A DNA stretch of 32,000 nt from Telmatocola sphagniphila. Its GTDB lineage: Bacteria > Planctomycetota > Planctomycetia > Gemmatales > Gemmataceae. The position numbers and the translations under genes were made by a program. Under the pieces are notes generated by a model that had not been told where the DNA came from, did no database searches, and worked only from the letters and a program-made list of their open reading frames with translations. The stretch spans positions 4,590,001 through 4,622,000 of the forward strand of contig NZ_CP074694.1 of assembly GCF_018398935.1 (NCBI RefSeq), written 5' to 3'. Shown in pieces: positions 2,379 through 26,005 of this stretch (the first letter of the stretch is position 1; every line of letters begins with the position of its first letter).

Positions 2379-2434
2379 GAAATTCGGGCCGACACCATTT
2401 CGGATCGGCCTACGTATTGAAAAATTACTCGAAC

Positions 2435-5595: not shown

Positions 5596-5715
5596 GATTT
5601 CCGGAGAAAAAAAATATTTTGGGATTAACTTGGGGTGTGCAAGCCCCCGACGTATGGGAAAACCAAATTCAGTGAAATTGGAACATCTGCTTCCTTTGAG
5701 ACTTCGAAGCAATCC

Positions 5716-6300: not shown

Positions 6301-6392
6301 TCACTGGGAATCTCCATTTCTTAGGCGTGGAATCGATATTGCTTGACTTAACCGGGAAATAACCGCTTAATGTCGAATAGCAATTTCACAAT

Positions 6393-6803
6393 TTGTTCCC
6401 GATGCCCAAATCCGAAGTTCCCCTTGATTTCATCGATTATCAAGCCATACGATTTCCGAGCGATCAGATAACGATGCGGGACATTAGACGCGTCCATCCG
6501 GATCTTTTCGACGTTGAGGATGCACCTCGATTCCGAAAAATCGTCGATCAAAGCTCTTTCACGCTCGATTTGATTTTGTATTTAGAACGACTGCTAGCGC
6601 GGGCAGCGTTTGAGAAAGCCTTGGGCAAGACGGAAGACGTACTTCAGAGACGCGGGCTCGATCGGCAAGATTGCGTCGAGGAGCTGACTCAATTTTACGA
6701 AACCTATGGCATCGCGCACGCTCAGGGAAAGCATCAGGCAGAGGTATTGATCCAGAACATCGAATCTCAAGCTGCTTCTCAAGCAAGATCGTATTCGCGC
6801 TGA
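6393..6803 (+). CDS. Hypothetical protein
   Basis: The ORF has protein-like composition and no recognised motif. An alternative ATG lies at 6402. A weak hairpin (6803-6825) follows the stop. Confidence 0.45.
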   Translation: MFPMPKSEVPLDFIDYQAIRFPSDQITMRDIRRVHPDLFDVEDAPRFRKIVDQSSFTLDLILYLERLLARAAFEKALGKTEDVLQRRGLDRQDCVEELTQFYETYGIAHAQGKHQAEVLIQNIESQAASQARSYSR

Positions 6804-7122
6804 CTGTTCTTGATTCGGGAACAGTTCAACTCACTGTTTTCTTTTCAGAAACAGAATTTTCAGACCCCCCTCTGTGAACGTATAGTTCACGTAGCGATGG
6901 TGATTCGACAACTTTGAATTATTCGAAACGGATAGCTTAAAGCCGAATCGAAAATCGCAACAGGAGGATGAGCTCTCATCGGTTCAGACTTCTGCCCTGG
7001 GTTGGTTAAGTTCCCAAAGTTCGAGTAGGTAGCTCACCACTAGAAGTCGCGGTAAAACGCGTCGCGGGGAAGCTCTGCGCTTTGGGATGAGTGAATTTGG
7101 TACTAACGCGAGGAGGTGACGG

Positions 7123-7338
7123 TTGCGAAAGCGGAACGGGATCGAGGGAATCTCGGAAGTTCACGCTTTATTGTCCAGCGGCTGGGCAGATGTGGGTAAG
7201 CACTACTTCTTTGAGGACCAGATTGTGTTCGATGGGGTGATGCTGCTGTTCTTGGACGACTTTGTATTGGTCTTGATCTTAGTGTGGCTGCGGATCTTCA
7301 GGAAGAAAAGCACTACCGGTGAATACCGGGGCGCTTAG
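7123..7338 (+). CDS. Possible small membrane protein
   Basis: The TTG start is preceded by GAGGAGG. The sequence has a hydrophobic C-terminal half (VMLLFLDDFVLVLILVWL). It has no homology that I can recognise. Confidence 0.25.
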   Translation: MRKRNGIEGISEVHALLSSGWADVGKHYFFEDQIVFDGVMLLFLDDFVLVLILVWLRIFRKKSTTGEYRGA

Positions 7339-7352
7339 CACTTATTGAATCT

Positions 7353-7380
7353 CGAGTCGGAACCGTGCGCGGCTCCGACT
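7353..7380. repeat. 12-bp stem hairpin (one mismatch, TGCG loop) in the ParB upstream region
   Basis: GAGTCGGAACCG-tgcg-CGGCTCCGACTC, read directly. Confidence 0.6.
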
Positions 7381-7428
7381 CAAATCGCCCTTGCAGGAAC
7401 TTACTCAAGAATCTCCGAACGTACGCCG

Positions 7429-7446
7429 GACGCTGATTTCAGCGTC
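7429..7446. promoter_or_regulatory. 18-bp palindrome, candidate operator or parS-like site immediately upstream of the ParB-like gene
   Basis: GACGCTGA-tt-TCAGCGTC is a perfect dyad about 20 bp upstream of the AAGGAGG Shine-Dalgarno at 7467-7473. Confidence 0.45.
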
Positions 7447-7477
7447 GCAGGGATTCTTCGTGCTTTAAGGAGGCAAT

Positions 7478-8329
7478 TTGACCGGAATTATGCAACCGAA
7501 ACAAGAACATCCTCTGGAATTCGGTTTGGTCGACGCGGAGAGCTTGATTGTCGATCCGCGCGAGGCCGAACGGCATCTGAGTTCGCCGGAATTCCCGGCC
7601 TTGGTGGAGAGCGTACGCCGGGACGACATTCTGCAGCCGCCGGGCGTCCTGCGGAATCTCCAGGTGGCTTTCGGTACTGGCCGAGTTTTGGCTAAACGTA
7701 AGGCCCGACCGGGCGAGCGCATTTTGGTCTGCTGGCTGCAGGAGTCGATGTCGGAGGCGCAGTTCAACCTTCTGAAATGGGTGGAGAATATGCGTCGCCA
7801 AAACTGGACTCCGACCGAGCAAAGCGACCGGCTTTTTGATCTCAAGCAACTGCATGCGGATCTCAACCAGAAGCAGCTGAGTGATCTGGTGGGACTAACC
7901 CCGACTAAAATCTCGACTCTTCTGGCGGTCTTCAAATGTGCTCCCGAGGTGCAGAAGCTCTATCGGGAAAACCTGCTGACCCCGAGTGATTGTGCCGAGC
8001 TAGCCCAGTTGCCGGTGGAAGTGCAACGCGCCCTGGCCAGCCAACGAGCGAGTGGAGAGATCCTCAATCGCGAGGCCTTGAAGAAGCTTCGCATTCAGCA
8101 TCAGACCTCCGAAACGACGACCGTGAAATCGTCGCGCGTTCGCATGCAGATCGGAGGAGTTCAAATCCTGGTTACGGGAAGCTCGGTCTCCGTGGAAGAT
8201 CTGTCGGAACTCTTCAAAACCGGGCTGAATCACTGTCGTCGTGCGGAAAAAATGCGCTGGGATATTCGCACGCTGGAACGGGTTCTCGGCGATGAAAATC
8301 GGAAGGAGGATCCTCATAGCGAAATTTAA
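7478..8329 (+). CDS. ParB-like (ParB/Srx N-terminal domain) partition or nuclease-family protein
   Basis: The ParB-N-like segment is LIVDPREAERHLSSPEFPALVESVRRDDILQPPGV. The HTH-like segment is LSDLVGLTPTKISTLLAVF. A strong SD lies upstream of the TTG start at 7478. Confidence 0.7.
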   Translation: MTGIMQPKQEHPLEFGLVDAESLIVDPREAERHLSSPEFPALVESVRRDDILQPPGVLRNLQVAFGTGRVLAKRKARPGERILVCWLQESMSEAQFNLLKWVENMRRQNWTPTEQSDRLFDLKQLHADLNQKQLSDLVGLTPTKISTLLAVFKCAPEVQKLYRENLLTPSDCAELAQLPVEVQRALASQRASGEILNREALKKLRIQHQTSETTTVKSSRVRMQIGGVQILVTGSSVSVEDLSELFKTGLNHCRRAEKMRWDIRTLERVLGDENRKEDPHSEI

Positions 8330-10208
8330 TCGGGCAGTTTTGGTTCTGGCCGTCCTGGTCCCGTTCGGTACCGGCTTCGTTTTTTTGATTCGGTTATTAC
8401 CGCCGCCCTTGGTTTTGTTCTTCCTGATTTGTTCGGTCGTTCGACTCAAACGGGTCAGCCCCAGTCTCTGGGCGATGGGGACTGCAAGATGGTCGAACCA
8501 TCAAGACCATCAGCGAGCCGGAATGCTCGAGCCCAACGGCGGGATCATCCTGGGTCGCAGTAGTACCAGTCGTTCACCGCCGCTGCGGGAGGCCATCCGG
8601 GGATTATTCGATCCCTACCTCGATGACGAAACGGCTGTGAATCGGGTGTTGCCGCTCGGACGCAAACGGTGGCAAGTCGAGAGCCAGAACACCTGGGTGC
8701 GAATGCCTCGCTGGGTTCCGCACACCGTAATTTTTGCACCAACGGGCGCTGGCAAAAATGTGTCCATCGCTTCGCCCTTCCTGTTGACCTGCCCCGACAG
8801 TTGCGTCGTGGTCGACTACAAGGGGGAGTTGGCCCGAGACCTAGCGGAATTTCGGAGAAGGCGATTTGGGCATCGGGTGGTTTTGCTGGATCCTTGGCGA
8901 CTCTGCACCGATCAGCCGGACATGCTCAATCCGCTCGATTTTTTCGACGGGCAAGATCCGGAGGTTTTGCAGGAGGCTCTCGACCTGGCCGAGGCCTTGG
9001 TGATACGGACCGGCAAAGAGCATGATCCCCACTGGGCCGATTCGGCCGAGGTGCTCCTGACCGCTCTGATCGTGGCGGTGGCCTTCTTTGCCCCGGAAGC
9101 GGAACGGAATCTCCAAAGCGTTCGCGAACGCTTGATCGATCCGGAGAAGTTTCAAAGTGCGATCCAGGCTTTGTGTGCCTCGGACGCTCTGGGGGGTCGA
9201 TTGCGGCGGTTTGGCCATCAGATGATGGCCTATCGGGATAAGGAGCTGGGATCGGTACTGACAACGGCGAATCGAAGCCTTCGCTTCTTGGATTCCCCGG
9301 CGGTTGGGGAGAGCATGCGGGTGTCGAGTTTTGACCCCGCAGAAATCCGCGAGCGGACAACGGCGTTTTTGATTTTACCGCCAACACATCAGAGGACGCA
9401 ATCGCCTTTGATGCGTTGCTGGCTGACCTGCCTGATACGGGCGGTGGTGAAAGGAGGTTTGCAGGAGAAAAATTTCGTCCACTTTGTTTTGGATGAAAGT
9501 TCGTCCTTAGGACGGATGGACATCTTGATTGACGCGGTCGAAAAATTTCGGGGCTATGGACTGAAATTGCAGTTCTATCTGCAGTCGCTGGGCCAGCTTA
9601 GGCAGCACTATCCGGACGGTTTGGATCTCACGATTTTGTCGAACACGGCGCAGATTTTTTTCGGAATTAACGAGCCGACCACGGCTGATTTTGTGAGTTC
9701 GCGACTCGGGGATGCGACCATCTGGGTGGAGAGCCAAGGCGATGGCGAGGGGAATGGAGTCTCCTCGGGCCGGGGGGGCGTGGAAGGCCGCAACCGAACG
9801 TTCAACACGAGCCGGAACTTCAACCAGCAGTCGAGACGGCTGGCCCGACCGGATGAGCTGATGCGATGGTCGAATCGGATGGCGGTGACTTTTGTGCCCG
9901 GGCTGCCGCCGATTAAGACTCGATTGCTGCGCAGCTACGAGGAGTTGGAATTGTACGAACCTCGCCCTCCTCGGAAGTATGCGAAGTGGCCGTTGGTAGC
10001 GCAGTCGTTAGCGACGTTAATTGCTTCCATCGTGATGGTGGCCTTTGTGGTCGATGTGCTGACTGACAATCAGCCTCGCACCTATCGGACCCGGACGATG
10101 ATGCCCACGGAAGCCAAAAAAGCCGCTTTGCCGAATCAGAAGACCGGCCAAGCACTCAAGGGCGGGAATACTTCCCGACCCGTATCGCCGAAGTCTTCGA
10201 AACGCTAG
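8292..10208 (+). CDS. Type IV secretion coupling protein (VirD4/TraG/TraD family)
   Basis: Two N-terminal hydrophobic segments are present. The Walker A is FAPTGAGKNVS. The Walker B region FVLDESSSLGRMDILIDAVEKFRGYGLKLQFYLQSLGQL is typical of T4CPs. The start is ambiguous (GTG 8241 or ATG 8292) and overlaps the end of the ParB-like gene. Confidence 0.85.
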   Translation: MKIGRRILIAKFNRAVLVLAVLVPFGTGFVFLIRLLPPPLVLFFLICSVVRLKRVSPSLWAMGTARWSNHQDHQRAGMLEPNGGIILGRSSTSRSPPLREAIRGLFDPYLDDETAVNRVLPLGRKRWQVESQNTWVRMPRWVPHTVIFAPTGAGKNVSIASPFLLTCPDSCVVVDYKGELARDLAEFRRRRFGHRVVLLDPWRLCTDQPDMLNPLDFFDGQDPEVLQEALDLAEALVIRTGKEHDPHWADSAEVLLTALIVAVAFFAPEAERNLQSVRERLIDPEKFQSAIQALCASDALGGRLRRFGHQMMAYRDKELGSVLTTANRSLRFLDSPAVGESMRVSSFDPAEIRERTTAFLILPPTHQRTQSPLMRCWLTCLIRAVVKGGLQEKNFVHFVLDESSSLGRMDILIDAVEKFRGYGLKLQFYLQSLGQLRQHYPDGLDLTILSNTAQIFFGINEPTTADFVSSRLGDATIWVESQGDGEGNGVSSGRGGVEGRNRTFNTSRNFNQQSRRLARPDELMRWSNRMAVTFVPGLPPIKTRLLRSYEELELYEPRPPRKYAKWPLVAQSLATLIASIVMVAFVVDVLTDNQPRTYRTRTMMPTEAKKAALPNQKTGQALKGGNTSRPVSPKSSKR

Positions 10209-10217
10209 AGGAGAGAA

Positions 10218-10496
10218 ATGTCGAGACAAAATCGCGAGCGGATCGCCGCTCTGGGGGAAAAGGAAGAAAAGCCTTTCGATTGGAAGGCGATTTTCGAACG
10301 CTTTGTTCGAGAAGTGGATGCCGAATTCCGACGCCTCGGCTCACATGGAGCTTCGGAATTGGCAGCCAGTTTGTACACCGGTTCAGCGTTTGTTCTTTAC
10401 GGTAAGGAACGCGAACAGCTCAACGAGGTTTCGCGGATCAACGAGCAGTTCCGCGAGATCGAACGCCAGCAAGAGGAATTGCAGCGTGGTCTTTAA
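10218..10496 (+). CDS. Hypothetical coiled-coil protein
   Basis: The ATG is preceded by GAGGAG. The composition is charged and helical (EQFREIERQQEELQ). Confidence 0.5.
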   Translation: MSRQNRERIAALGEKEEKPFDWKAIFERFVREVDAEFRRLGSHGASELAASLYTGSAFVLYGKEREQLNEVSRINEQFREIERQQEELQRGL

Positions 10497-10557
10497 CTGG
10501 GGATGGGATTCACACGCGGGGTGTGATGAACATAGTTTCTTTTTGGGGGATAGTTCA

Positions 10558-10776
10558 ATGCGTTTTCCGATTGTGCCTTTGATTAGTACGGTCTGTGCGG
10601 CATTGGGTCTGGGCGGACTCTACTGGTACTACCAGCTGAGTAAAGAAGAGCAGCAAGAGGCGGATCGAATCGCCATGGGCTACGCCCGTAGCCTTTACAA
10701 CAAGACGGTCGAGGAGCTGACCTCCAGCGAGATCGACAAGATCCGGGCTCTCACCAAGAGCCACTTCAGCGCCTAA
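10558..10776 (+). CDS. Small single-TM membrane protein
   Basis: The ATG follows a GGGGGA motif. The hydrophobic N-terminus is IVPLISTVCAALGLGGLYWYY. A hairpin (about 10808-10826) lies downstream. Confidence 0.5.
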   Translation: MRFPIVPLISTVCAALGLGGLYWYYQLSKEEQQEADRIAMGYARSLYNKTVEELTSSEIDKIRALTKSHFSA

Positions 10777-10918
10777 TGCTCAGGCGCTGATCGTCAACCT
10801 TCGGGCTCCAGGGGTTCAAAGCCCCTTGGGCCTTCTTCCACAAACAATCTTCGTAGCAGCGGTGCTGGATCTCTTCCGATGAGGGACTTTCCGGCCTGCT
10901 TTCTGGGAAAGGGGTTTT

Positions 10919-11191
10919 ATGGTTATTGCATCCGTTCATTTGGACACTGAACAGCCAGGGAGAACCTTACGCGAAACCAAGATCGAGATCGCCTGCTCCG
11001 GAGCGAACGTGGCGATGGATTATCTGGAGGGGGACTATACCCCGCAACAGCGGAAGGAAATCCGCCGAGCGATTCGGCGGGGAATCCTGAACGGGATCTT
11101 TGTCTATAGCGATCTCCTGCGGGCGCGAGCCCAGGAATCGGCGAACACCTATTCGGTCTGCCGTTTGGGACTGGGAGGTGATAATGACTAG
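10919..11191 (+). CDS. Hypothetical protein
   Basis: The ORF has an 8-nt overlap with the downstream excisionase-like gene. No recognised motif. Confidence 0.4.
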   Translation: MVIASVHLDTEQPGRTLRETKIEIACSGANVAMDYLEGDYTPQQRKEIRRAIRRGILNGIFVYSDLLRARAQESANTYSVCRLGLGGDND

Positions 11192-11471
11192 TGCGGAGCC
11201 ATTGCTCTCGCAGATCCTCGAGCGGCTCGATCAGTTGCAAATCGGCCTCGATCAACTGGTCGAACGCGAGAAGATCAAAGAGTGGTACACCACCGAAGAA
11301 CTGGCCAAAGTCGTCGGCAAGGCGGAATTTACCGTCCGCGAGTGGTGTCGGCTGGGTCGCATCAAAGCCCAGAAGCGACAGAGTGGCCGGGGCAAGTTCC
11401 TGGCTTGGGTGGTCTCGCACGAGGAGCTTCTGCGATTCCAGCGGGAGGGGTTGCTGCCTCTGAAGAACTGA
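11184..11471 (+). CDS. Excisionase-family / MerR-like HTH DNA-binding protein
   Basis: EWYTTEELAKVVGKAEFTVREWCRLGRIKAQK matches the excisionase-family HTH pattern. It is the last gene before the compositional break. Confidence 0.65.
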   Translation: MTSAEPLLSQILERLDQLQIGLDQLVEREKIKEWYTTEELAKVVGKAEFTVREWCRLGRIKAQKRQSGRGKFLAWVVSHEELLRFQREGLLPLKN

Positions 11472-11506: not shown

Positions 11507-11545
11507 TCCTTCTACACATTCACATATCCCGAATGTGTAGAAGGA
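11507..11545. repeat. Perfect 15-bp inverted repeat (9-nt loop) at the element/island junction
   Basis: TCCTTCTACACATTC-acatatccc-GAATGTGTAGAAGGA, read directly. It lies 36 nt after the excisionase-like stop, and no U-tract follows. Confidence 0.7.
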
Positions 11546-12538
11546 GAATGCGCTTACGCGTGACGAATCTGCCAGTGAACCAGCTTCTATCAATATCTTC
11601 AGCCATTTTTGGGCAAAATTCCTGCGGGGTAGTGAAAATTGCTCTCTTCCCTGGTTTTCATTACCAACGTACATCGCTTAGAGATTTTCGAATTCGGTTA
11701 ACTCTACCTTTACGGGCGCAAGAGAGATGTTGCTGACTTACAACGAGACGAAAAATCCGAACCAGACAAGATCGTAATTAGGCTTAGGCTGAACTACTGC
11801 TTCTCCAGTAGCCAACTTCGTTTCAATTGATTCAAAAAATGCAGAAATCGTCGAATATTTTGAACTTAAGGCAAGTTATTCATCCAAGTGAGAGGTAGCG
11901 GTGTGAAATTCCTAATGCTCAGCTCAAAAGCTCGAGTCGCGATTTTAAAGGCAAATTAATAAAACTATTGGTTGACGATGAAGTCGAAAATAATTATAAA
12001 TTTGTTTGATTGTAAGCAGTATTTCTCACATGGGTTCCAACCCCCAAAAGGAACATTATCGTGATTGAGGCACCTTTGGTCGGATCATTTCTTCAGGAAA
12101 AATCGACGTCAGAAATATTTTTCGCATCCGTCTATTTCAATTTTCCAGATCTAAATGACCAAGCTCTGACGATTCCAACTTACTATGAACTGTTGGCGAT
12201 ACTAGAAACGAGGGCTCAGTAGCTGAGGACGTTTGGTTTTTCTTCTAATTTTTAAGGGAAATGCTACAAGCTATGGTGAACGCGACGTGTGAGGATTTTA
12301 ATAATCGTATTCAGAAGAACCAATTGGTAAACCATCTATTTCCTCGAGTTCAATACTTATCATAATCTCAGATTGTTCCACTGCTACTAACTCTATATTC
12401 TTGGTGGGAGATTTTTCCATTAAAACACAAGATGTATATTATCTTTAGTATTTTTTTCTAGAACCGCTTATCATGACTAGATTTAAAAAGATGCCATCTT
12501 TCGTTCTCTTTTCCTGAACTGAACACTGAGTGAACTTA

Positions 12539-14065
12539 ATGGATACACCTAGCCTAATTTTGCCCTGGGATATAGTTAAACACTCACTTTGTTCAAGTGA
12601 ATTTACTCTGCGCCTAAGGTTAGAAGACTTGGGGAATTCCGATGCGGGTTTGACTAAATGGCTAGAATCTTATAAACGATCAAACTCAAATGAGTCGTCT
12701 TTACCTTCAAATGATCCACGATCCTGGAAAATATATTCTCACGATACAGAGTTGAAAATTATTATTAACGATTCTGGAAATAGTTATGAATCTCATGGTA
12801 GGGCTATCTTCACTCGAATGCGTTGTGGTGAGCAGGTCAGCTTGACCTATCGCCATCTTGGCAAACCAATAATAGTGTCCGATAAGAGAATTTACTTCTT
12901 GCCAAAGAAAATTGATACTAATACTAGGAAATTGATAGAACAACAAATAGAGAATAATGATCTTGAAGCAGAAAATTCGCTAAAAGATCTGACCGCAAAA
13001 TTTAAGCAGCTCGATGATATCGAAGTAGATAACGACATTATAAACCTATTCAATTATCTGAGTTCTCAACCAAAATGCGAAGATGATTATCTACTAAGTT
13101 TTGCTGAATTGCACAACTTCGTTTTTCGACGGCTCCAATCGCGAGGAGATCAAACACTTCCACAGGGACTTTTAATTATCTCAGGAGCCACAAAGTCTGG
13201 TAAAAGTGAGATGTCTCGGGCTCTGATCGCAAGGTGGCTGATACAAGCTCGGTGTGAAAAAAAAGGGTCAGGCTTTCGAAATCCCCATCTACTTACAATT
13301 GAAGATCCGATCGAGAAGCCTCTGTTTAATGAAAAACACACAGATGAAAGTCTCTATCAAAAATACGGGATAGATTACACACCACGACTCATAGGGGTAG
13401 ATTGTGCAAGCGTAAGAAATGTGCTGAATGATGCTCTAAGGCAAACCCCTTCCATCGTTTACATTGGCGAAGTGCGCGGTGGCGATGATTGGAGTGCGAT
13501 TCTCGACTTCGCCGCAACCGGCCATTTCGTTGTTGCCACTGCTCATGCGTCGAGTTTAACCGAAACATTTTTAAGAGTTTTTAATGCGATCGGGGTAAAA
13601 AAACCATCTGATTTCATACAGTATGCACAACGTATTTTTGGTATTGTGAGTTTACGCTCAATTTCTGCAATCGATTTCAAGTCTGGGATTTATCGCTCCG
13701 AGGGCAAGAAAGAATCGACTGTAAAGAAGCTAGGTAATTCTGTTATCGTGCCTTCCTTGTGGCGTAATACTAACGAGGCGATCGCCAAACTTGCAGGCGA
13801 TGGATTAGCATCGCTCTTGCCCTTTAGGCATGGAGTGCCAAATGATTGGACTAAAGCGACCGCATTGTCCGGTACCCAGGGTCGAGCGAGCTGTCTCGAG
13901 TGGTTACTGGCATACCATCTATCTAATGAACCGATGAAATCTTGGATTTACTCGAATAAAGAAAATCTCAATTCTGTTACAAATTTTTCTAAGGAAGAAC
14001 TTAAAATAATCTTAGCATCTCAATGGCTCAGAAGAGCCATTGCGCTTGACCTCGAAGGAACTTAG
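12539..14065 (+). CDS. PilT/VirB11/FlaI-family (type II/IV secretion-type) hexameric ATPase with a unique ~210-aa N-terminal domain
   Basis: The Walker A is GATKSGKS (nt 13184-13207). The Asp-box-like motif is HLLTIEDPIEKPL. The Walker B region is LRQTPSIVYIGEVRGGDDW. The His-box-like motif is GHFVVATAHASS. The start is GTG 12530 or ATG 12539. Confidence 0.8.
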   Translation: MDTPSLILPWDIVKHSLCSSEFTLRLRLEDLGNSDAGLTKWLESYKRSNSNESSLPSNDPRSWKIYSHDTELKIIINDSGNSYESHGRAIFTRMRCGEQVSLTYRHLGKPIIVSDKRIYFLPKKIDTNTRKLIEQQIENNDLEAENSLKDLTAKFKQLDDIEVDNDIINLFNYLSSQPKCEDDYLLSFAELHNFVFRRLQSRGDQTLPQGLLIISGATKSGKSEMSRALIARWLIQARCEKKGSGFRNPHLLTIEDPIEKPLFNEKHTDESLYQKYGIDYTPRLIGVDCASVRNVLNDALRQTPSIVYIGEVRGGDDWSAILDFAATGHFVVATAHASSLTETFLRVFNAIGVKKPSDFIQYAQRIFGIVSLRSISAIDFKSGIYRSEGKKESTVKKLGNSVIVPSLWRNTNEAIAKLAGDGLASLLPFRHGVPNDWTKATALSGTQGRASCLEWLLAYHLSNEPMKSWIYSNKENLNSVTNFSKEELKIILASQWLRRAIALDLEGT

Positions 14066-14069
14066 GCAC

Positions 14070-17000
14070 ATGGCAATTAACGAGCGAAAAAGCAGTAGAT
14101 TGAGATTCGGGATTTACGAACTTGATTATCTCTTGAATAAGGACAATCGTTGTGTTTTTGCTGAGTCGGTGACGGCGATGAATTCTCAAGAAGACCTCCC
14201 ACCGGAACCTAAAGAAGTTCACTCAACAGCCCCAGACACCAAACCTGCACTAGGATGTCTTGAGATTGAGGCCGTGAACTCGGGATGCATGAGCCTCTGC
14301 ATCTTAGGACCCGATGGGACTGGCAAATCCCTTTTGGCTTTACACCTCGCTAACCATTACTTGGTTGATGCTAAAACAATTGGAAATTGCCAGCCTTTGG
14401 CGCTCTATTTCTCGACGGATCTCTCTCAGTCCCAAGCTGAGACTTCGTGGAAAGCATTTGCTCTGGACAATCCTCAACTCAGGTGGGAAGAGCTACCATC
14501 CTTTGCTAAAGGATCGGACGGTGAAAAACCTACACTGAACAACATTGGGTTTCGCGGGGTGAAACCATTTCTAGAGCACGACGGATCTCATAACAGCCTC
14601 CTAAGCTCACTTTGTGTGGGGAATCTGCCTTCCGATCCTATTGAGTTGTTTTTTTTAGACAGTCAGGCTAAACCATGCGGCGATGACTGGCTATATTTGA
14701 GTCGTTTTATAAGTACTTTACCTCTTCCCTCAGGTGACAGTTGGCCCCATCTTTTATTGATTGATGCAGTCGAAGGGTTAGAACCCGCTTTCGGTCGTCG
14801 TGATATATTCGGGCATGAGTCGGCAGGCCGAACTCGTCTAGCGCAATTGATTCGTGCGGCTCGAGAAAAGTGTCATATTGTATATGTTGTCGAGGAGCCA
14901 AGGCCAGGAGAGACTCTAGATACGCAATATGTTACAGACGTCGTAATTCGTCTGACAGTTGAAAAGACGGGTAATTATTCTCATCGAACAATTGAGGTCG
15001 AAAAAGCCAGAGGTGCTCAGCACATTCGCGGACAGCACGATTTTGCGATTCGATCTGGTGTTGGCTCTGCAACGGGTGAGCAGGTGAATGCAGACGATCC
15101 TAAAGTTCCTCGGCTCAAAAATACTCATAGAGAAAATATCGCTTACATGCATGTAATGCGATCACTACATTCAATGAGTAGACAGGTGCTCGAATTACCC
15201 TCAGGAGAAACGCCTGACATCAACCCAAGACGAGACAAAGTTTATGGGTTTGGGATCAAATATCTGGATAGCCTTCTTCCAAGAGTCGAGAGTAGTCAGG
15301 GAGACGAAAGAACAAATGGCTTGATCGGCGGTACGGCCTCAGCTCTCATTGGACCTTTAACCACACACAAGAGTCGTCTAGCGCGAGCGTTTTTAGCTCA
15401 AGTTTTGCCCGATGGTCTGGATGATTATCTTGAATCGCTTGAATCCGGGAAGCAACCTTCACTAAAGCCCACTATCAAAGAACTAGGAGTATTAATCTCG
15501 ACTCAAAGAGTGGACCGATCTGTACTTTTCCGAACTGCATGGCAGCATCGTTTTGGTAAACCATTTGCAGCGAAAGACACTGCGCAAGCCGTCCGACATA
15601 CAACGAAATTGATCGAAGATAATTTGTGTCCGTTTATCGTACGCAGGCTTGAAGTTCATCGCTATTCGTCGCAAGGGATAGTACATGTAATCAAAGAGTC
15701 CATTCAAAGTGCTCAGCAGCAATTACTCAATCTTAGTGATCCATCAGGGAACTTATATAAAGTTGAGGTAAAAGAGAAACACGGAACAACGAAGACACGC
15801 GAAATTTGTCGTAATATAAGATTTGTGTTCGATGATTGGCATGTCTTTCAAGATACTTTTCCCGAAGCTGCGCAAGATCCCATGCTGCTACCACACATTT
15901 TTCACTTCCTTAGTCGCCAAGGCATCACGGCACTTTTTCTCGACACTGAACCTGGCATTCCATTAATGCCGGACGCACATTCTGATGTTACGCTCCGAGC
16001 TTTGGCTTCAAGACACTTATATACATGGCTTGTGCCATTTTACGGAGAACGAAGGATTGCAATAACGACAACACCTCCTGCTGCATCAGGAGTACCTTCC
16101 CCAATATTCGAACTTAGGCCACGTAGAGTCGAGCAAAGTACACAGTTTGAAGACGAACAATTGATTGTTGATCCTCACTTTGAAATGTACACAGGCTTGG
16201 AATCTTCAGATATCAAAAGAGTAGCACTAAAAGTGATCCTTTATAACGGTGCAAAGAAAAAGTCCGACGAGGAGCCTATTGAAGGAGAGTACATCACAAC
16301 AATTCGCCAACTGATGAGTGACCTATTCGGGAATGAGGATCACTCGACACTCGAAACGGTCGACAGTGCAGGATACGATCGGATGCGGGATTACGTCTAT
16401 CTGCAAGATGGAACTCGCCTAGATCATACTTTAGTTATGCAAGTTGATGAATTCTGGTCGGAGAGCATCCCGTCGTTAGCAGACTTGACAGATTATATGA
16501 ATGATGAAACCGACATCAATGAAAAAGAATTAAGTGATATTGAAGATCCATCTCGGCTTCGTAGGGGACAGAGGAGTCGATTGGAGGTATTTAATGTTGT
16601 CACAAAAAAATTTAAGAATGACTACAATTTGTATTTCAACAAAGAGAAAAAACCACTTCGAATAGACAAGGTTCCATTTCTTTGGGATTTTGGCTTCTTA
16701 TTAGCAAATCGTGAGCAGTGGCTCTCCATAGCAAAATCGCAACCAAACTCATCAGAGATTTGGTCGGCTCTTTCGGTATTTGAACTCAATTCAGGTGAAT
16801 ATCATAAAAAACTGGGATCAGAGAAAGACAGATATATTAGTTGGTATCAGTTCTTCGGCATATGTGAACTCGCTCGGAGTCGAGGATATATCCCTTTTGA
16901 TATCGACTTGCAAACATCAGAAGTTCTCTCCTGTTTAGTCCTTGAAGTTTGGTGCTCGATTTTGCTCGATTTGCGTATAAAACTGCCAGATCAGATACTT

Positions 17001-17849
17001 AACGGCATTAGACATGATGAAGCAACTATGTCGACAGGACTAGTCGAATTGATCGATCTTAAAGATGAAAAAGGTGTTAAATGCGGTGAACTGGCATTGG
17101 CATTGGCGTTACAACTCATTTTTAGTAACCTTCCAAAAATGGAAATTGAGGGCGGCTCTTTTGTATGTCGCCCTGCAAATCCGAATGCGTTTACTGCGAG
17201 ACACTATTATTCGACTGCTGCTCGAAAAAACTATAACTCCGGCCGTTTAGTTCCACTAAAGCTGCCGGGATGGTTCTCTGTTCGTGGTGATTGGTTTTTA
17301 GGGCTCGCAAAAGGAAGTCGGTCACCTCGGCTTGGCTTAAGAGCTATGGACTTATTATGTAGTACCAGAGGCAATTTTGAACGACTCAGAGCAGGAATTG
17401 GATTACCAGTACGCGAGATCTTGAGTGATGATAGTGTAGGTTCTGTCCGAACTGCGCTCGTGGCTCCATGGAAAAGTGATTTGACTCCCAATATGGATAT
17501 TGGACATATCACACTGGAAGCGCTTTATGCCATCGCACCTGACAGCAATCCTTCAGAACCCAATAAACCACAGTTCAACTTTCTCTGGCGATCTTTGCTG
17601 CAACACTACGATCAGACATCCAGGCGATTTCACAGATGGTTAGGACGAATGTACCTTATGCATGACGCATGGAGAATTCATTTCAAAGCATTAGAAGACT
17701 CTTGTTGGAAGGATCTTGGATCTTTACAAGATGGAATAAGCAATGCTATCAAAGACATTGAAGAGCAGGAACGGAACAAAAAAACCGAGGATAAATTTTC
17801 CACTCAAATAGAATTACTACGCTCGATGTTAAAGCAAGGAATAGATTAA
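14070..17849 (+). CDS. Giant KaiC/RecA-like ATPase: two tandem KaiC-like domains plus a C-terminal solute-binding-protein-like region
   Basis: Domain 1 has RLRFGIYELDYLL, Walker A GPDGTGKS (nt 14307-14330), Walker B HLLLIDAVEGLEP and the KaiC-like tail RTIEVEKARGAQHIRGQHDFAI. Domain 2 has YGFGIKYLDSLL and a degenerate P-loop GPLTTHKS. The C-terminal half has segments resembling family-1 SBPs (VMQVDEFWSESIPSLADLTDYM and GDWFLGLAKGSRSPRLGLRAMDLLCS). The ATG at 14070 lies 4 nt after the upstream stop. Confidence 0.8.
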   Translation: MAINERKSSRLRFGIYELDYLLNKDNRCVFAESVTAMNSQEDLPPEPKEVHSTAPDTKPALGCLEIEAVNSGCMSLCILGPDGTGKSLLALHLANHYLVDAKTIGNCQPLALYFSTDLSQSQAETSWKAFALDNPQLRWEELPSFAKGSDGEKPTLNNIGFRGVKPFLEHDGSHNSLLSSLCVGNLPSDPIELFFLDSQAKPCGDDWLYLSRFISTLPLPSGDSWPHLLLIDAVEGLEPAFGRRDIFGHESAGRTRLAQLIRAAREKCHIVYVVEEPRPGETLDTQYVTDVVIRLTVEKTGNYSHRTIEVEKARGAQHIRGQHDFAIRSGVGSATGEQVNADDPKVPRLKNTHRENIAYMHVMRSLHSMSRQVLELPSGETPDINPRRDKVYGFGIKYLDSLLPRVESSQGDERTNGLIGGTASALIGPLTTHKSRLARAFLAQVLPDGLDDYLESLESGKQPSLKPTIKELGVLISTQRVDRSVLFRTAWQHRFGKPFAAKDTAQAVRHTTKLIEDNLCPFIVRRLEVHRYSSQGIVHVIKESIQSAQQQLLNLSDPSGNLYKVEVKEKHGTTKTREICRNIRFVFDDWHVFQDTFPEAAQDPMLLPHIFHFLSRQGITALFLDTEPGIPLMPDAHSDVTLRALASRHLYTWLVPFYGERRIAITTTPPAASGVPSPIFELRPRRVEQSTQFEDEQLIVDPHFEMYTGLESSDIKRVALKVILYNGAKKKSDEEPIEGEYITTIRQLMSDLFGNEDHSTLETVDSAGYDRMRDYVYLQDGTRLDHTLVMQVDEFWSESIPSLADLTDYMNDETDINEKELSDIEDPSRLRRGQRSRLEVFNVVTKKFKNDYNLYFNKEKKPLRIDKVPFLWDFGFLLANREQWLSIAKSQPNSSEIWSALSVFELNSGEYHKKLGSEKDRYISWYQFFGICELARSRGYIPFDIDLQTSEVLSCLVLEVWCSILLDLRIKLPDQILNGIRHDEATMSTGLVELIDLKDEKGVKCGELALALALQLIFSNLPKMEIEGGSFVCRPANPNAFTARHYYSTAARKNYNSGRLVPLKLPGWFSVRGDWFLGLAKGSRSPRLGLRAMDLLCSTRGNFERLRAGIGLPVREILSDDSVGSVRTALVAPWKSDLTPNMDIGHITLEALYAIAPDSNPSEPNKPQFNFLWRSLLQHYDQTSRRFHRWLGRMYLMHDAWRIHFKALEDSCWKDLGSLQDGISNAIKDIEEQERNKKTEDKFSTQIELLRSMLKQGID

Positions 17850-17852
17850 TCG

Positions 17853-18269
17853 CTAAAAGCTTCTGCCAGACATGATCTTCGTCTGGTTTTTTTCAGATAG
17901 CAGCTCTTTCGAGGCGGCGTCAAACGCTTCCTTCGATGCTTCTGAAAAATCCTTGAGATTGCTACAGTGCCTTCTATAGACGGCCTCCATGGATCCTTCG
18001 GTTGAAACTGTAATGTCCCATTCACGCGGCTTATGTCTCCAACGAGAACACCAACCCCTGACTAAAGGTTTAGTTTCGCCAAAGTCAAATACTAGTCCGT
18101 CATCTGCTGTCTTAAAATTTGGTTTTTGGTTGATTGATGGCTCTGCATTATAAAAAGCCGTGATCATAGCTCTGACGGCATCTAAATATTCGATCCCCGT
18201 CGCAGTCCCCTCCTGAACGGGACCACTATTTTCTCTGGTTGCATCAACTTCATTCATAACTTCCTCCAA
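17853..18269 (-). CDS. Hypothetical protein, convergent with the KaiC-like gene
   Basis: This is a 138-aa ORF with protein-like composition. Its stop lies 3 nt from the stop of the 14070-17849 gene. It shares the AT-rich composition of the island. Confidence 0.5.
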   Translation of the reverse strand: MEEVMNEVDATRENSGPVQEGTATGIEYLDAVRAMITAFYNAEPSINQKPNFKTADDGLVFDFGETKPLVRGWCSRWRHKPREWDITVSTEGSMEAVYRRHCSNLKDFSEASKEAFDAASKELLSEKNQTKIMSGRSF

Positions 18270-21845: not shown

Positions 21846-23279
21846 TCATTGACTTCCCGCCAGGCGATAGGCCAGGCAGACAATCTTGGCGTTAAGATCG
21901 TTATTTAGATCATCTAATAATTCTTGCTCTGATCTCGTTTTACGATCCATCATCGATTCTAGAGCCTGAATACCCCGCTCGAAAATCAACCGCTCCTTCA
22001 GACAGACATGTACTAAAATTTGGCGAATCCTCCTGAAAGTCAATGAGCCGCGCAAATTGGGAAAAGAGATCTCCCCGAGAAGTCTTTTCAATTCCGCCTT
22101 TAGCCAGGGACTTTCAACATCGGTCTCGGAATCATCCGTTCGCCAAAGTTCGTTCATCAGAGCCGCATGCAGAAGCGAATTGATAACCGGCGCCACAACT
22201 GCAACCTTCTCCAGTCGGTTCAGCCATTTGATGGGCCGGATCTCCATTGAGTTTAGAAAGCCCAGATAGTCGGCCGTGCAGGTTATGGAGTCGTTCAACC
22301 AGTTCGCCGCCAGAATTTCAAACACGTAAGGTATTGGCGGCATCCGGGCCTGAAGGGATTTCCAACTCAGGCGAATCAGCTGCAAGGATTCACAACGATC
22401 CAGCTGGTAATTGCGGTCGCTGCGCATTGCGAAGGAATTCAGATAAACGAGGATTCGATCCAGTAACTGACTCGCCCGATTCTCATTCATCGGCAACCAG
22501 GCGACGTAATCGAACATCTGAAGGACGAGGCGGAAAGCCAGATCTTCGTCGACTTCTGTGTAATGCTGCTTCAGTGTCTCAAAGTCCTCGATGAATTGCA
22601 GTATATCCGAGGTTTCCCAGAGCGCGCGATAGCGGATTTGATACCAGTGCGATAAGTGGAGGCTCGTGCTGGGCAAGTTCTTCAGTTCCAAAAATTCCGG
22701 AGTGTTCACCAGCGTTGCGTCGACAAAAATTTCCCGGCGCAGCAGTTCAGTCAGAGGCTCCGCCCAACCGAACCGTTTGAGTCCCTCATAAAGCCAATTG
22801 GTCTCGGGACAGAGATTCTTAACCTCCGAAAACAGTTCGCACAACCAGTAAAGTTGCACGTAGTGAATGGGAGTGGCCTGAAGTTCCGTGACGAGACGAT
22901 TCAAACCCCGGTAGGCCTCCAGGAGTTGACCATCCACGGCCATCTGCCAGAAGTCGGTGAGCTGCGGAGCCGTATGACCTTCGGGACCGGTACTTGTAAT
23001 TGTGAAAGCTGGCTGAAAGCTGTTCGGTTCAAAATTTACAATCAGCGAACTCGTTGCCGTGAGGTCGTCTGCTTCCTGATCTTCGAAGCGCTGCAGAAAT
23101 TCGTAGTGCTCGCGAATTTTTCGAAACTGTTCCGGATGATGTTCGGGCCGAAAGCGACGAATCAGCTTGTTATAGCTCCGCTTCAGATCCTCGCGAGTGA
23201 ATCGATTCGAAAGACCGAAAAGTTCCCGCGGATTAGCAGGCCAATGTTTGAGATCTTCGGGCAGATCTTCCGGAGGCAT
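21846..23279 (-). CDS. J-domain-like protein (HPE instead of HPD) with a large uncharacterised C-terminal domain
   Basis: The N-terminus ELFGLSNRFTREDLKRSYNKLIRRFRPEHHPEQFRKIREHYEFL follows the J-domain helix II / HPD / helix III layout, with E at the D position. It is the last gene of the Hsp70 operon. Confidence 0.6.
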   Translation of the reverse strand: MPPEDLPEDLKHWPANPRELFGLSNRFTREDLKRSYNKLIRRFRPEHHPEQFRKIREHYEFLQRFEDQEADDLTATSSLIVNFEPNSFQPAFTITSTGPEGHTAPQLTDFWQMAVDGQLLEAYRGLNRLVTELQATPIHYVQLYWLCELFSEVKNLCPETNWLYEGLKRFGWAEPLTELLRREIFVDATLVNTPEFLELKNLPSTSLHLSHWYQIRYRALWETSDILQFIEDFETLKQHYTEVDEDLAFRLVLQMFDYVAWLPMNENRASQLLDRILVYLNSFAMRSDRNYQLDRCESLQLIRLSWKSLQARMPPIPYVFEILAANWLNDSITCTADYLGFLNSMEIRPIKWLNRLEKVAVVAPVINSLLHAALMNELWRTDDSETDVESPWLKAELKRLLGEISFPNLRGSLTFRRIRQILVHVCLKERLIFERGIQALESMMDRKTRSEQELLDDLNNDLNAKIVCLAYRLAGSQ

Positions 23280-23304
23280 GGGATCTTTTATCCTTCAGGT
23301 AGGA

Positions 23305-24276
23305 TTAAGGCTTCTTCGCTTTGATGTCGCGCAGATTCTTTAATAAGCTATCTTGCGCTTGCATCCGCTTTTCATAAGCCGCATCGGTTTCATTTGGTTT
23401 CTTGATCCAATAGGGTGTCGAATCCTTGGGCTGAATGATCGTAGGCTTCCATTGCGTGTTGGAGGGATCGGGCGATCGGCTGGTCGAACCGGAATTCAGT
23501 GCTAGACAGCCACGCATTAGGAAAAGCATCAACACAAAAATCATGAATGAACCAGATCGACCGCTTCCTCCGTCCGAGTTGGAGCTGCTACTCTGCTTCT
23601 GCTGACTCGGGTTCTGTCGGGCCTTCCCGAGAACTTTCTCCCGGTTTGGTATTTCAATTTCTTCCTTCAAAGCCGAGTCGTCGGGAGTGATAAATTGCTT
23701 TAAACCGGGTAGCGACTCGATCAACTCCGGATCGTCGTTCTTGATCGTTCCCAGCAGAATCCGGTTCTGATGAACATCCGCTTCAAACCACGCTCGGCTT
23801 TTCGCGGCAAATTCGGTGGGAGAATTCAGCAACCACTCGGACGAGAGCGTACGCAACTTCTCCCCTTCGGGGGTGGCCGGTTTAATGGCCGCTACCAGTT
23901 GGGCATTTCGAAAAGATTCCAGCTGCCGTTGGAAGAGGGGATATTTTTCAGTGACAACGTTCAACCGGTCGATTCTTTCTTGCCGTTCGAAAACGTTGAG
24001 AGTCCAGAACTTGCTTCGAAGATCGGCCAGCTGCATTTTGATATTGGCATACTCGCCGTCGGTCAGTTTCAGCGTTTGTACGGCCCGTCCCACGGACTGG
24101 CCGCGCAAAAGCATAATGAGGGCGGCCTGCCGGTTTTTGTCTGGGGTGAACGATTGCTCCTGGAGCATCTTCAATATCGCCTGATCGCGAGCCGCTTCCT
24201 CGGAATGCTCGTTCAGGCCGAGCATATCCAGAGCCCAGAATTCCGGAGGTCGATTGTCTGAAGGTTTAGGGTCCAT
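23305..24276 (-). CDS. Hypothetical single-TM protein encoded between the Hsp70 and the J-like protein
   Basis: The ATG at 24276 overlaps the Hsp70 stop by 11 nt (an alternative start lies at 24309). A Ser-rich linker precedes the hydrophobic segment FMIFVLMLFLMRGCLAL. Confidence 0.55.
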   Translation of the reverse strand: MDPKPSDNRPPEFWALDMLGLNEHSEEAARDQAILKMLQEQSFTPDKNRQAALIMLLRGQSVGRAVQTLKLTDGEYANIKMQLADLRSKFWTLNVFERQERIDRLNVVTEKYPLFQRQLESFRNAQLVAAIKPATPEGEKLRTLSSEWLLNSPTEFAAKSRAWFEADVHQNRILLGTIKNDDPELIESLPGLKQFITPDDSALKEEIEIPNREKVLGKARQNPSQQKQSSSSNSDGGSGRSGSFMIFVLMLFLMRGCLALNSGSTSRSPDPSNTQWKPTIIQPKDSTPYWIKKPNETDAAYEKRMQAQDSLLKNLRDIKAKKP

Positions 24277-26005
24277 CTTCCTCCGCCTTTTCAGATGGAT
24301 CGAAGGCACTGAGAAATTGCTGAAGCTCCTGTCGGGTCGACTCGATCAAGACGGGATCCTGATGATTCATCGCGGCTTCAAAGGTATCCATTAGAACCGC
24401 GAGACGCTCGCGAAGTTCCCGGCTCAATTCCGCGTAAAGTCGCTCGGCCCGCAGCAGCACATAGCGGTTGACTTCATTTTCACGGGGATGAATCTTCAAG
24501 GTGGCCATGGCTTTCAAAGCCGCCTCGATCTGGGCCGCGGACATCTGTTTGGCACCGGAGGTAATTACGAAATTCTTCTTCTTGCCCGTCTTCGCAATCG
24601 TCGCCTCCACCTCCAGTACGCCGTTGAGATCGTAGGTGAATCGAATATCGACCTGTTGGCCGGGCGGTCCCTGGGGAATGCCCATCACATCAAATTTGCC
24701 CAGTAAAAGATTTTGATCTGTCTTCCGGCTATCTCCCTGATACACCTTCACCGTGATCATTGTCTGATTGGGTTCCACCGTGGAAAACGATTCCACGCGA
24801 CTCACCGGGATGGTGGTGTTGCGTTCAATAATCGGGGCGAAATAGCCGTCGGTGTAACTGCCACCCAATTTTTTCACCGTCTCGATACCCAGGGTGAAGG
24901 GGGCAACATCGGTGACCACCAGATCGTCCAGCGCGGCCGAACGACTGAACAGTCCGGCCTGAACGGCCGCCCCCATAGCAACCACCTCATCGGGATTGAG
25001 GCGAATCTGCGGTTCGCGGCCCAGCATCTGCTTCACCCGATCGCGCACCATCGGCATGCGGGTGGCACCGCCAACGAGAATGACTTCGTCCAGCTTTTCT
25101 TTGGGCAGGCGGGTATCGTTCAGCACCCGGCGAACCGGCAATTCGGTGCGGGCCAGGAGTGATTTGATGCGATCCTCCAGTAGTGACCGATTGATTTCGA
25201 AAGTGGGTGTATCCTCGGTAATAATACCTTGCCGATTGGGAACCTGAACCGAGACCGTTTCCTGCTGACTGAGCTTGCGTTTAGCGACTTCGCAGAGTTG
25301 AATCAGCCGGGAGACTCGTTTGGGAGTGTCAATTTCGGCACGTTCAAAGGAAACCCCTTCGCGATCCAGGATCATGGCGGCGATGGCGCGGGTAAAATCT
25401 TCGCCGCCGAGAAAGTTCTCGCCGGAGGAGGCTTTCACTTCGAGAGCTCCTTCGAAGAATTCCACAATGGAAACATCGAAAGTACCCCCGCCAAGATCGT
25501 AGATCAGGATCGTTTTGTTCTGCTGGCTTTCGTGCAGGCCGTAGGCAATCGCGGCAGCCGTCGGTTCGTTGAGAATTCTCTGAACTTCCAACCCGGCGAT
25601 CTGCCCGGCGGCAATCGTGGCTTTGCGCTGCCGGTCGTTGAAGTAGGCCGGGACGGTGATAACTGCCTTAGTCACCGGATGACCGAGATAGTTCTCCGCA
25701 TCGCGCTTCAAGGCGGCCAGGATGAGGCTGGAAAGCTCTTCCGGAGTGAACGTTCGCTTGGAAATTTTGGTGGTCCATTCGGTGCCCATGTAGCGTTTGA
25801 ACAGGCTGGCCGATCGTTCGGAATGAAGTACTTGATATTCCTTCGCGGCGGAACCGACGAGAACTCGTTCTTTTTCATCCAGTGCAACGACCGACGGGGT
25901 GAGATTCTGCCCGAGCGAATTGGGAATGAGCTTCGCGCCCTCGGGCGTCATAATAGCCACGGCCGAGTTGGTGGTACCGAGGTCAATGCCGATGATCGTA
26001 TCCAT
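24266..26005 (-). CDS. Short Hsp70-family chaperone (HscC-like, non-DnaK paralog)
   Basis: The Hsp70 signatures are IGIDLGTTNSAVA, IYDLGGGTFDVS and ILVGGATRMPMV. At 579 aa it is shorter than canonical DnaK. It has no grpE or dnaJ neighbours. Confidence 0.9.
   Translation of the reverse strand: MDTIIGIDLGTTNSAVAIMTPEGAKLIPNSLGQNLTPSVVALDEKERVLVGSAAKEYQVLHSERSASLFKRYMGTEWTTKISKRTFTPEELSSLILAALKRDAENYLGHPVTKAVITVPAYFNDRQRKATIAAGQIAGLEVQRILNEPTAAAIAYGLHESQQNKTILIYDLGGGTFDVSIVEFFEGALEVKASSGENFLGGEDFTRAIAAMILDREGVSFERAEIDTPKRVSRLIQLCEVAKRKLSQQETVSVQVPNRQGIITEDTPTFEINRSLLEDRIKSLLARTELPVRRVLNDTRLPKEKLDEVILVGGATRMPMVRDRVKQMLGREPQIRLNPDEVVAMGAAVQAGLFSRSAALDDLVVTDVAPFTLGIETVKKLGGSYTDGYFAPIIERNTTIPVSRVESFSTVEPNQTMITVKVYQGDSRKTDQNLLLGKFDVMGIPQGPPGQQVDIRFTYDLNGVLEVEATIAKTGKKKNFVITSGAKQMSAAQIEAALKAMATLKIHPRENEVNRYVLLRAERLYAELSRELRERLAVLMDTFEAAMNHQDPVLIESTRQELQQFLSAFDPSEKAEEDGP

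Follow-up and report, generated by a model that had tools for sequence, protein, structure and literature searches.

KaiC-like ATPases have been proposed as general signalling hubs, the inputs and targets of which are mostly obscure beyond the clock and the archaellum. The KaiC-like protein ArlH is hexameric when bound to ArlI, an ATPase of the T2SSE family; the ATP-bound form of ArlH stimulates ArlI, and autophosphorylation releases ArlH. ATPases of the KaiC family are, moreover, frequently encoded in archaea together with type IV pilus ATPases. Here we describe a gene pair found in 32,000 nt of contig NZ_CP074694.1 of Telmatocola sphagniphila (the whole stretch is hereafter the window, and positions are counted from its first nucleotide). 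It is composed of a gene for a PilT-like ATPase, the partner, and, directly downstream on the same strand, a gene for a protein, here called KaiC-PBP, with two tandem KaiC-like domains and a C-terminal domain predicted to have a periplasmic-binding-protein (PBP) fold. In a sister clade of KaiC-PBP proteins the partner slot is occupied by an HD-domain protein. The partner gene and the HD-paired clade, both missed in an earlier reading of the window from its letters alone (the sequence-only reading), change the understanding of KaiC-PBP. The two genes (12530-14065 and 14070-17849) would represent a self-contained module with the large protein as a cytoplasmic switch, and the reading that we tentatively put forward is that of a ligand-gated KaiC-type switch which might control the partner enzyme in a regulatory, non-immune role.

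The closest working analogy appears to be the ArlH-ArlI pair (FlaH-FlaI), in which likewise a KaiC-like protein is encoded beside a hexameric ATPase of the T2SSE family. ArlH, however, consists of one RecA domain (~230 aa) and lacks a sensor domain, whereas KaiC-PBP is a fusion of a double KaiC with a PBP domain, on which the ArlH equivalog model scored 13.1 bits versus 215. ArlI belongs to the FlaI branch and occurs with ArlJ and archaellins, whereas the pair described here is bacterial, PilT/DotB-like and without platform or filament genes: the FlaI model scored 26.2 bits versus 550 on the partner, which is closer to PilT than to FlaI, and no arlJ or archaellin neighbours were conserved at the loci. 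On paper the KaiC-PBP/PilT-like pair would work like ArlH-ArlI, of which it is not a member.

Architecture of the KaiC-PBP protein

The open reading frame (ORF) of KaiC-PBP ends at 17849 on the + strand and has two possible starts, a TTG at 14040 and an ATG at 14070. The ATG is the likely start of the gene, since the upstream stop lies 4 nt before it, a GAAGGA sequence is located 10 nt on its 5′ side and the homologues begin at the equivalent residue. An identical protein sequence is deposited for T. sphagniphila (Planctomycetota, Gemmataceae) with the annotation "hypothetical protein" (accession and coordinates of all features in Table 1). The ORF does not occur by chance, because 94 full-length homologues were collected at E ≤ 1e-11 (1071-1959 aa, best identity 41-42%), the C-terminal domain searched alone returned 518 representative clusters, and invariant residues are spread over the full length of the family alignment. 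A hydrophobicity scan detected neither a signal peptide nor a transmembrane helix: the highest 19-residue Kyte-Doolittle mean, 1.86, falls in a conserved, charged internal helix, and as no 19-residue window is sufficiently hydrophobic KaiC-PBP is considered cytoplasmic.

The sequence-only reading had described the protein as an active and a degenerate KaiC-type domain in tandem, fused to a module resembling a solute-binding protein (SBP), and its motifs were found exactly where it had placed them (GPDGTGKS, aa 80-87; RTIEVEKARG, aa 306-315; FGIKYLDSLL, aa 394-403; GPLTTHKS, aa 428-435). In order to model the protein, AlphaFold2 (AF2) was run on two overlapping pieces (aa 1-720 and aa 690-1259), each with a 54-sequence alignment; motif states were counted over 92 aligned family sequences. 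The model of aa 1-720, with a predicted local distance difference test score (pLDDT) of 84.8 and a predicted template modelling score (pTM) of 0.87, was aligned by Foldseek to full-length KaiC over ~665 columns (best 3k0f_C, E 1.4e-23), with template modelling (TM) scores of 0.68-0.71 normalised to KaiC; an alignment of this extent indicates that both RecA-like domains are KaiC-like and placed as in KaiC. At the sequence level, Pfam PF06745 matches the window protein only over a short stretch (aa 285-329; 28.2 bits versus a threshold of 26.6), and it is matched by 33/33 family members (best 1.4e-16). The family profile reached KaiC chains at 1e-16, and the P-loop and Walker B of domain 2 also align, weakly. 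These three lines of evidence bear out the tandem KaiC/RecA assignment, while the NCBIfam KaiC equivalogs (NF006799 / TIGR02655) remain far under cut-off (21.2 versus 408 bits and 11.7 versus 546).

In domain 1, the Walker A motif GPDGTGKS is invariant (92/92), the Walker B follows the family pattern hhhhD[AS]VEG[FL]E, and K312 and R314 of the E-K-A-R-G tail are invariant. We take K312 and R314 to be the counterparts of the KaiC residues that reach into the ATP site of the neighbouring subunit, and their invariance would therefore imply a ring with inter-subunit nucleotide sites. KaiC and ArlH carry the catalytic glutamate or glutamates at the end of the strand following the P-loop helix. In the PilT-paired clade, to which the window protein belongs, this strand (111-115 in the model) is closed by an invariant S-T-D-L, at a site which we presume, from the position of the strand in the model and from the KaiC sequence, to be equivalent to KaiC E77/E78; in the HD-paired clade the catalytic position is, by contrast, a glutamate ("YISLE[ESNT]").

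The P-loop of domain 2 follows the pattern [IL]G[DNE]xxT[QHY]K[STG], with G428 present in 92/92 sequences and T432 and K434 in 89/92, and the glycine preceding the lysine is missing from all 92, so that the intact Walker A of domain 1 and the degeneracy of domain 2 both stood up to the family-wide count. The loss of this glycine is common to the two clades. The Walker B of domain 2 reads RVVIDD in the family and the K-x-R tail is replaced by WRxPFYGExRVAI. As had been guessed, domain 2 is degenerate, with an altered P-loop that is conserved across the family; judged from these motifs it is strongly constrained, and it may retain a nucleotide or phosphate, while ATP turnover by this domain is unlikely.

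Right after domain 1, the segment of aa 327-344 (nt ~15048-15101) is highly conserved as IRxGxGSTTGxQxNxDDP, in which G330, G332, N340, D342 and P344 are invariant or nearly so. No counterpart could be assigned to it in KaiC; a linker, a phospho-acceptor loop and a contact site are all conceivable. The longest proteins of the family (P0089, P0071, P0045, P0080 and P0004; 1660-1960 aa) owe their extra length to big insertions at a few variable loops, such as ~640 aa within domain 2 of P0089. The idea that the longest members (up to 1959 aa) carry effector domains was rejected, these being loop insertions without any Pfam domain.

KaiC-PBP and KaiC thus share PF06745, a tandem of RecA-like domains with matching order and mutual orientation, and the Lys/Arg tail in domain 1. 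Unlike KaiC (~520 aa), KaiC-PBP has a degenerate P-loop in domain 2, Thr-Asp in place of the Glu pair of domain 1, an additional SBP-fold domain of 545 aa and scores far below the KaiC equivalogs; neither kaiA nor kaiB was found near it, the PilT-like gene being its only conserved neighbour (window flanks annotated). In spite of its KaiC-family domains, KaiC-PBP is not a KaiC.

The model of aa 690-1259 (pLDDT 83.4, pTM 0.89) was compared with the Protein Data Bank (PDB) by Foldseek, and the best matches were Thermotoga maritima MalE3 (6dtr, 2.9e-10) and the Thermococcus litoralis trehalose/maltose-binding protein TMBP (1eu8, 4.4e-10). Among 872 matches at E ≤ 1e-3, all of the top 50 were family-1 SBPs (TM 0.55-0.66, normalised to the SBP), in line with the family-1 resemblance proposed by the sequence-only reading. 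The conserved motifs of the domain are DEFW (aa 793-796), PFxWDFGF, LPGxFSVRGDWF (aa 1065-1076) and GxGLPxR (aa 1109-1115), three of which recur in both clades as DEF[W], LPG..GDW[FY] and G[VI]GLP. The residues common to the two clades are D793-E794-F795, W925, E951, W1046-Y1047, G1073-D1074-W1075, R1105, R1174 and Y1180. Sequence searches gave a different picture: none of 33 family members matched the SBP models PF01547/PF13416 at E ≤ 1, a profile of the C-terminal part alone found nothing in the PDB at E ≤ 10, and the whole-family profile found no SBP there. The sole echo at this level is a weak precomputed SBP_bac_8 (PF13416) match in the sister-clade protein P0241, and it is on this match and on the fold search with the predicted model that the SBP relationship rests.

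Like the family-1 SBPs (MalE, TMBP, UgpB; SBP_bac_1/SBP_bac_8), the domain has a predicted two-lobe type II PBP fold and a similar order of conserved motifs. Unlike them it is internal and cytoplasmic, has an extra helical tail and loop insertions and carries no export signal; the lack of a signal peptide or lipobox, pointed out before, holds for a domain that begins only at aa ~715, in a protein devoid of hydrophobic segments. Genes for an ABC permease or ATPase are not conserved near the KaiC-PBP loci. The protein has an SBP fold but is not the SBP of an ABC transporter.

The conservation of Trp, Tyr, Asp, Glu and Arg across the clades is only suggestive of a cytoplasmic ligand sensor. We also considered that the domain could be a structural or protein-binding module, recruiting a partner or a polymer, in which the SBP fold is merely retained. 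This improbable explanation would agree with the lack of sequence-level SBP similarity in the window's clade, with the large clade-specific loop insertions in the domain and with the recruitment of PBP folds for non-transport roles in other proteins. However, the conserved residues are aromatic, acidic and Arg, typical of carbohydrate-binding clefts, and the fact that these PBP motifs are kept between clades at ~20% identity argues for a functional site instead of a mere scaffold. A role of the motifs in partner recognition is, furthermore, unlikely because the same residues are fixed in both clades despite their different partners.

Partner enzymes in the two clades

The partner gene, translated from a GTG, codes for an ATPase with a T2SSE domain (Pfam, 2.3e-15). 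It matches TIGR01420 (pilT_fam) at 1.4e-19, yet with 70.5 bits versus a cut-off of 319.1. The partner family profile reached PilT/PilU (7e-30), DotB (8e-23), GspE (7e-15) and VirB11 (4e-9) in the PDB, in the ATPase core only, and within the family the residues of Walker A, Asp box, Walker B and His box do not vary. The N-terminal ~200 aa are fast-evolving and the C-terminal ~130 aa are also unmatched to PilT. By BLAST, the N-terminal 205 aa showed no similarity to other partners; only P12, D24, R91 and R108 are conserved at the profile level, a hint of a divergent T2SSE N-domain. The partner thus shares with PilT/PilU and DotB an ATPase core with all four motifs, and differs from them in its flanking regions, in not being linked to pilus or Dot/Icm genes and in its pairing with KaiC-PBP.

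The PilT-like gene lies directly upstream in 56/58 of the non-redundant genome loci for which 1.3 kb or more of preceding sequence was available, and in 7/7 metagenome loci of the PilT-paired clade with room for it. At five sampled homologous loci it is on the same strand, with a gap of 1-4 nt, and the remaining neighbours are all different; the short gap matches the coupled junction of the window. No PilT-like gene was found by BLAST, despite room, at L025 (Myxococcales), which has a full-length KaiC-PBP, and at L070, which has a C-terminal fragment only and is possibly a decaying copy. All-versus-all ORF clustering over 67 loci brought up no conserved gene beyond these two; what else recurred were clusters of antisense shadow ORFs inside the large gene. 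In a mirror-tree analysis of 48 loci, the pairwise distances of KaiC-PBP and partner correlated with r=0.906, a value reached by 0/2000 permutations; this fits co-inheritance as a unit, a correlation which does not by itself prove contact.

The homologue search had as its most distant match P0094, a protein that aligns collinearly with aa 225-1115 of the window protein, SBP motifs included, at 22% identity, and belongs to a sister clade of ~48 proteins. Its upstream coupled slot contains, in 9/9 contexts (L073-L078, L089, L092 and L094), an HD-CE protein (Pfam PF24391, 509-637 aa) and never the PilT-like ATPase. The match is strict also at metagenome loci, with PilT-like partners for the window's clade (clade A) and HD-CE partners for the sister clade (clade B). 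In the HD-CE proteins the H...HD...H...H...D metal site is intact and is accompanied by a conserved C-terminal domain (~170 aa); sequence comparison with solved structures revealed no relative. A literature search returned no paper on "HD-CE", and the origin of the Pfam name could not be traced there.

The resemblance of the partner to retraction motors raises the possibility that the module is an accessory regulator of the host type IV pilus or type II secretion, in which an extra retraction-type ATPase would dock on a platform protein whose gene lies elsewhere, tuned by KaiC-PBP to the intracellular sugar status. The closest solved relatives of the partner are indeed the PilT/PilU retraction ATPases (7e-30), ArlH-ArlI and the archaeal association of KaiC-like proteins with type IV pili offer a precedent, and the host phyla are surface-attached polysaccharide degraders. 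We nevertheless hold this explanation to be very improbable: no pilus, pilin or secretion-platform gene is linked to the module in ~65 loci, the score of the partner is far under the cut-off for the PilT family, and neither its N- nor its C-terminal region matches PilT. Moreover, a pilus-specific role is hard to reconcile with the HD hydrolase that replaces the ATPase in the sister clade.

Table 1. Coordinates of the module, its domains and motifs, and of annotated neighbours in the window
Feature	Position (nt)	Residues (aa)	Strand	Evidence or sequence
PilT/DotB-like hexameric secretion-type ATPase, 511 aa from GTG	12530-14065		+	T2SSE, profile versus PDB
Translational-coupling junction	14054-14072		+	GAAGGA (Shine-Dalgarno-like) 14054-14059, partner stop TAG 14063-14065, ATG 14070
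KaiC-KaiC*-PBP protein, cytoplasmic	14070-17849	1259 aa	+	WP_213494698.1
KaiC-like domain 1	14091-15074	~8-335	+	Pfam, profile, AF2/Foldseek, motifs
Domain 1 Walker A	14307-14330		+	GPDGTGKS
Domain 1 site where KaiC has the Glu pair	14412-14423		+	STDL
Domain 1 Walker B	14751-14777		+	LLLIDAVEG
Domain 1 putative trans-acting K312/R314	within 14985-15014		+	
KaiC-like domain 2	15237-16139	~390-690	+	Profile, AF2/Foldseek, motifs
Domain 2 entry motif	15249-15278		+	FGIKYLDSLL
Domain 2 degenerate P-loop	15351-15374		+	GPLTTHKS
Domain 2 Walker-B-like motif	15822-15839		+	FVFDDW
MalE-type domain (family-1 SBP, type II PBP fold, predicted)	16212-17606	~715-1179	+	AF2, Foldseek, motifs
C-terminal four-helix tail beyond the SBP fold	17607-17846	~1180-1258	+	AF2 secondary structure, helices 491-569 of fragment model
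PIN toxin	916-1365			
Tyrosine integrase	1362-2378			
Tyrosinase with DUF7868	2435-3979		-	
ParB-HTH protein	7478-8329			
TraG/VirD4 coupling protein	8241-10208			
Excisionase-like helix-turn-helix (HTH) ORF	11100-11471			Recognised by eye only

Distribution and genomic setting

The scan for the family covered 185,579 species genomes and yielded 66 loci, which belong to Planctomycetota, Acidobacteriota and Armatimonadota, apart from a few in Verrucomicrobiota, Myxococcales and Burkholderiales. The nearest relatives are within the same phylum in 41/48 cases and in another phylum in 7/48. No relatives were found in PLSDB plasmids, INPHARED phages or IMG/VR viral contigs. The 136 nearest neighbours at ~50 loci are mixed and overwhelmingly housekeeping or metabolic genes; a few match defence models (AriA/PtuA-like, ThsB, JetC and MADS components), many of these few being generic ATPases. 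Transposases are located beside the module at L001, L003 and L094.

A serious alternative, though somewhat doubtful in our opinion, is an anti-phage or anti-mobile-element (conflict) system, in which KaiC-PBP would be a sensor NTPase whose PBP domain recognises a small molecule derived from infection and licenses an exchangeable effector, this being the HD nuclease or phosphohydrolase in one clade and, in the window, a PilT-like motor stripping or jamming some machinery. The self-contained operon of NTPase plus enzyme in ever-changing neighbourhoods would suit this explanation, as would the sparse and patchy occurrence with its cross-phylum neighbours, the adjoining transposases and the few defence-model matches. 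The same is true of the two alternative partners in one slot, since with one of them an HD enzyme they resemble the nuclease-NTPase layout of defence operons, and of the position of the window copy, in a low-GC stretch by integrase, PIN, ParB-HTH and TraG/VirD4 genes. Against it stand, besides the lack of relatives on mobile replicons and the mostly same-phylum kinship, the results of a scan with PADLOC-DB 2.0, in which KaiC-PBP had no match and the partner matched only mads_8 (E 0.004, 27 P-loop residues). A PilT-like ATPase is not known as a toxic effector, and an argument from defence islands was dropped because the defence matches among the 136 neighbours, which are overwhelmingly housekeeping genes, are scattered and mostly generic. 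The two-gene NTPase-plus-nuclease anti-phage operons have likewise a large NTPase beside a swappable enzyme (HD in the sister clade); in contrast to them, the module has no catalogued match and a PBP-fold sensor, and its partner in the window is an ATPase, not a nuclease. A survey of conflict systems (eLife, 2020) mentions neither KaiC nor PilT. That the family represents a new class of immune or conflict sensor, in which a cytoplasmic MalE fold detects a molecule derived from infection or stress and a KaiC-type ring activates an interchangeable effector, seems rather unlikely to us; if true, it would be the first defence system with a PBP-fold receptor as sensing arm and a PilT-like motor as effector arm.

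In the window, the GC content is 0.37-0.47 between 12 and 19 kb, versus 0.49-0.57 on the flanks, and no att-like direct repeats were found around the low-GC stretch. Immediately before the module, the PIN, integrase, ParB-HTH, TraG/VirD4 and excisionase-like genes (916-11471) make up the remnant of an integrative or conjugative element, with the tyrosinase gene lying in their midst. The ~1 kb that separates them from the PilT-like gene (11520-12529) is without a convincing ORF and falls where the GC content of the window is lowest (0.37, 12001-13000); it presumably holds the promoter region of the operon, although the promoter scan was at chance level. Overall, promoter and terminator scans were at the level of shuffled sequence, and tRNA and Rfam scans gave no match. 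A convergent ORF of 138 aa (17853-18269, - strand) ends 3 nt from the KaiC-PBP stop, with no family match and no counterpart at any homologous locus; it is thus specific to this lineage, unless it is no gene at all. As a hidden third component of the module it was rejected, being without counterpart elsewhere.

Further downstream, an HscC-type Hsp70 gene (24266-26005, - strand) precedes two ORFs of the same strand that have no Pfam match (23305-24309 and 21846-23279); the region 21846-26005 is possibly an Hsp70 operon of an atypical kind. At 30847-31647 a unit of ~270 nt occurs three times in tandem, with 85-92% identity between the copies, and every copy contains two 39-nt sub-repeats as well as the palindrome TTGAAAATGCAATGCATTTTCAA. 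One more copy, partial and isolated, is found at 26441-26527. The array, which overlaps an ORF (30958-31491), could be an intergenic element present in several copies or a gene of repetitive sequence.

A possible ligand-gated switch and its significance

For the ligand-gated switch that we prefer, the sequence of events would be as follows. Domain 1 would bind ATP, with Lys312 and Arg314 building inter-subunit sites in a ring, probably a hexamer as in KaiC, and domain 2 would provide a structural tier, non-catalytic or weakly nucleotide-binding. The MalE-type Venus-flytrap domains, one per subunit, would form a crown binding a cytoplasmic small molecule, probably sugar-like or anionic carbohydrate-like, and, on closing around the ligand, would alter the KaiC-like ring in its nucleotide or oligomeric state. 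This ring, in turn, would bind and gate the co-expressed partner, the PilT/DotB-like ATPase in the window and the HD phosphohydrolase in the sister clade. In favour of such a switch are the predicted folds, the conserved motifs of the KaiC-like and PBP domains, the strict pairing and co-evolution with a partner that keeps its catalytic boxes, the HD-CE protein in the same slot of the sister clade, the archaeal precedent and the mostly ordinary metabolic or housekeeping genes around the module. Whereas the folds, motif states, cytoplasmic location, gene pairing, coupling, co-evolution and alternation of partners come out of the analysis itself, the hexamer, the ligand and its binding, the contact with the partner, the direction of control and the target of the PilT-like motor are inferred.

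Several observations weigh against this reading. The family is sparse, as 66 loci in 185,579 genomes are unusual for a core regulator, and neither an output domain nor a conserved target gene was found in the module, to which the absence of linked pilus, pilin and platform genes in ~65 loci has to be added. Contact between KaiC-PBP and partner would be deduced from a co-evolution that can reflect shared inheritance only, and the chemistry of domain 1 is uncertain, given that the catalytic Glu pair of KaiC corresponds to an invariant Thr-Asp in the window's clade. On balance, a metabolite-responsive regulatory role is favoured only slightly over an immune one.

Scans of Pfam, NCBIfam and PADLOC found no annotated family that covers the architecture, in agreement with the statement of the sequence-only reading that none was known to it. 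These databases and the literature searched describe neither the architecture nor the gene pair, a passing mention in a survey of KaiC-like ATPases being possible; the literature search returned no paper on a pair of KaiC and PilT or on a fusion of KaiC and SBP. A MalE fold fused in the cytoplasm, together with the two-partner design, would surprise specialists. If the immune role were true, bacterial defence would gain a sensor logic that is new to it. As a regulatory switch, it would give both ends of KaiC-type signalling, a Venus-flytrap input, unusually cytoplasmic and fused to the ATPase ring, and a dedicated output enzyme in two flavours, and signal transduction by a KaiC-type ring would become directly testable with two purified proteins. 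The partnership between KaiC-like proteins and T2SSE ATPases, so far an archaeal theme, would thereby be extended to Planctomycetota, Acidobacteriota and Armatimonadota.

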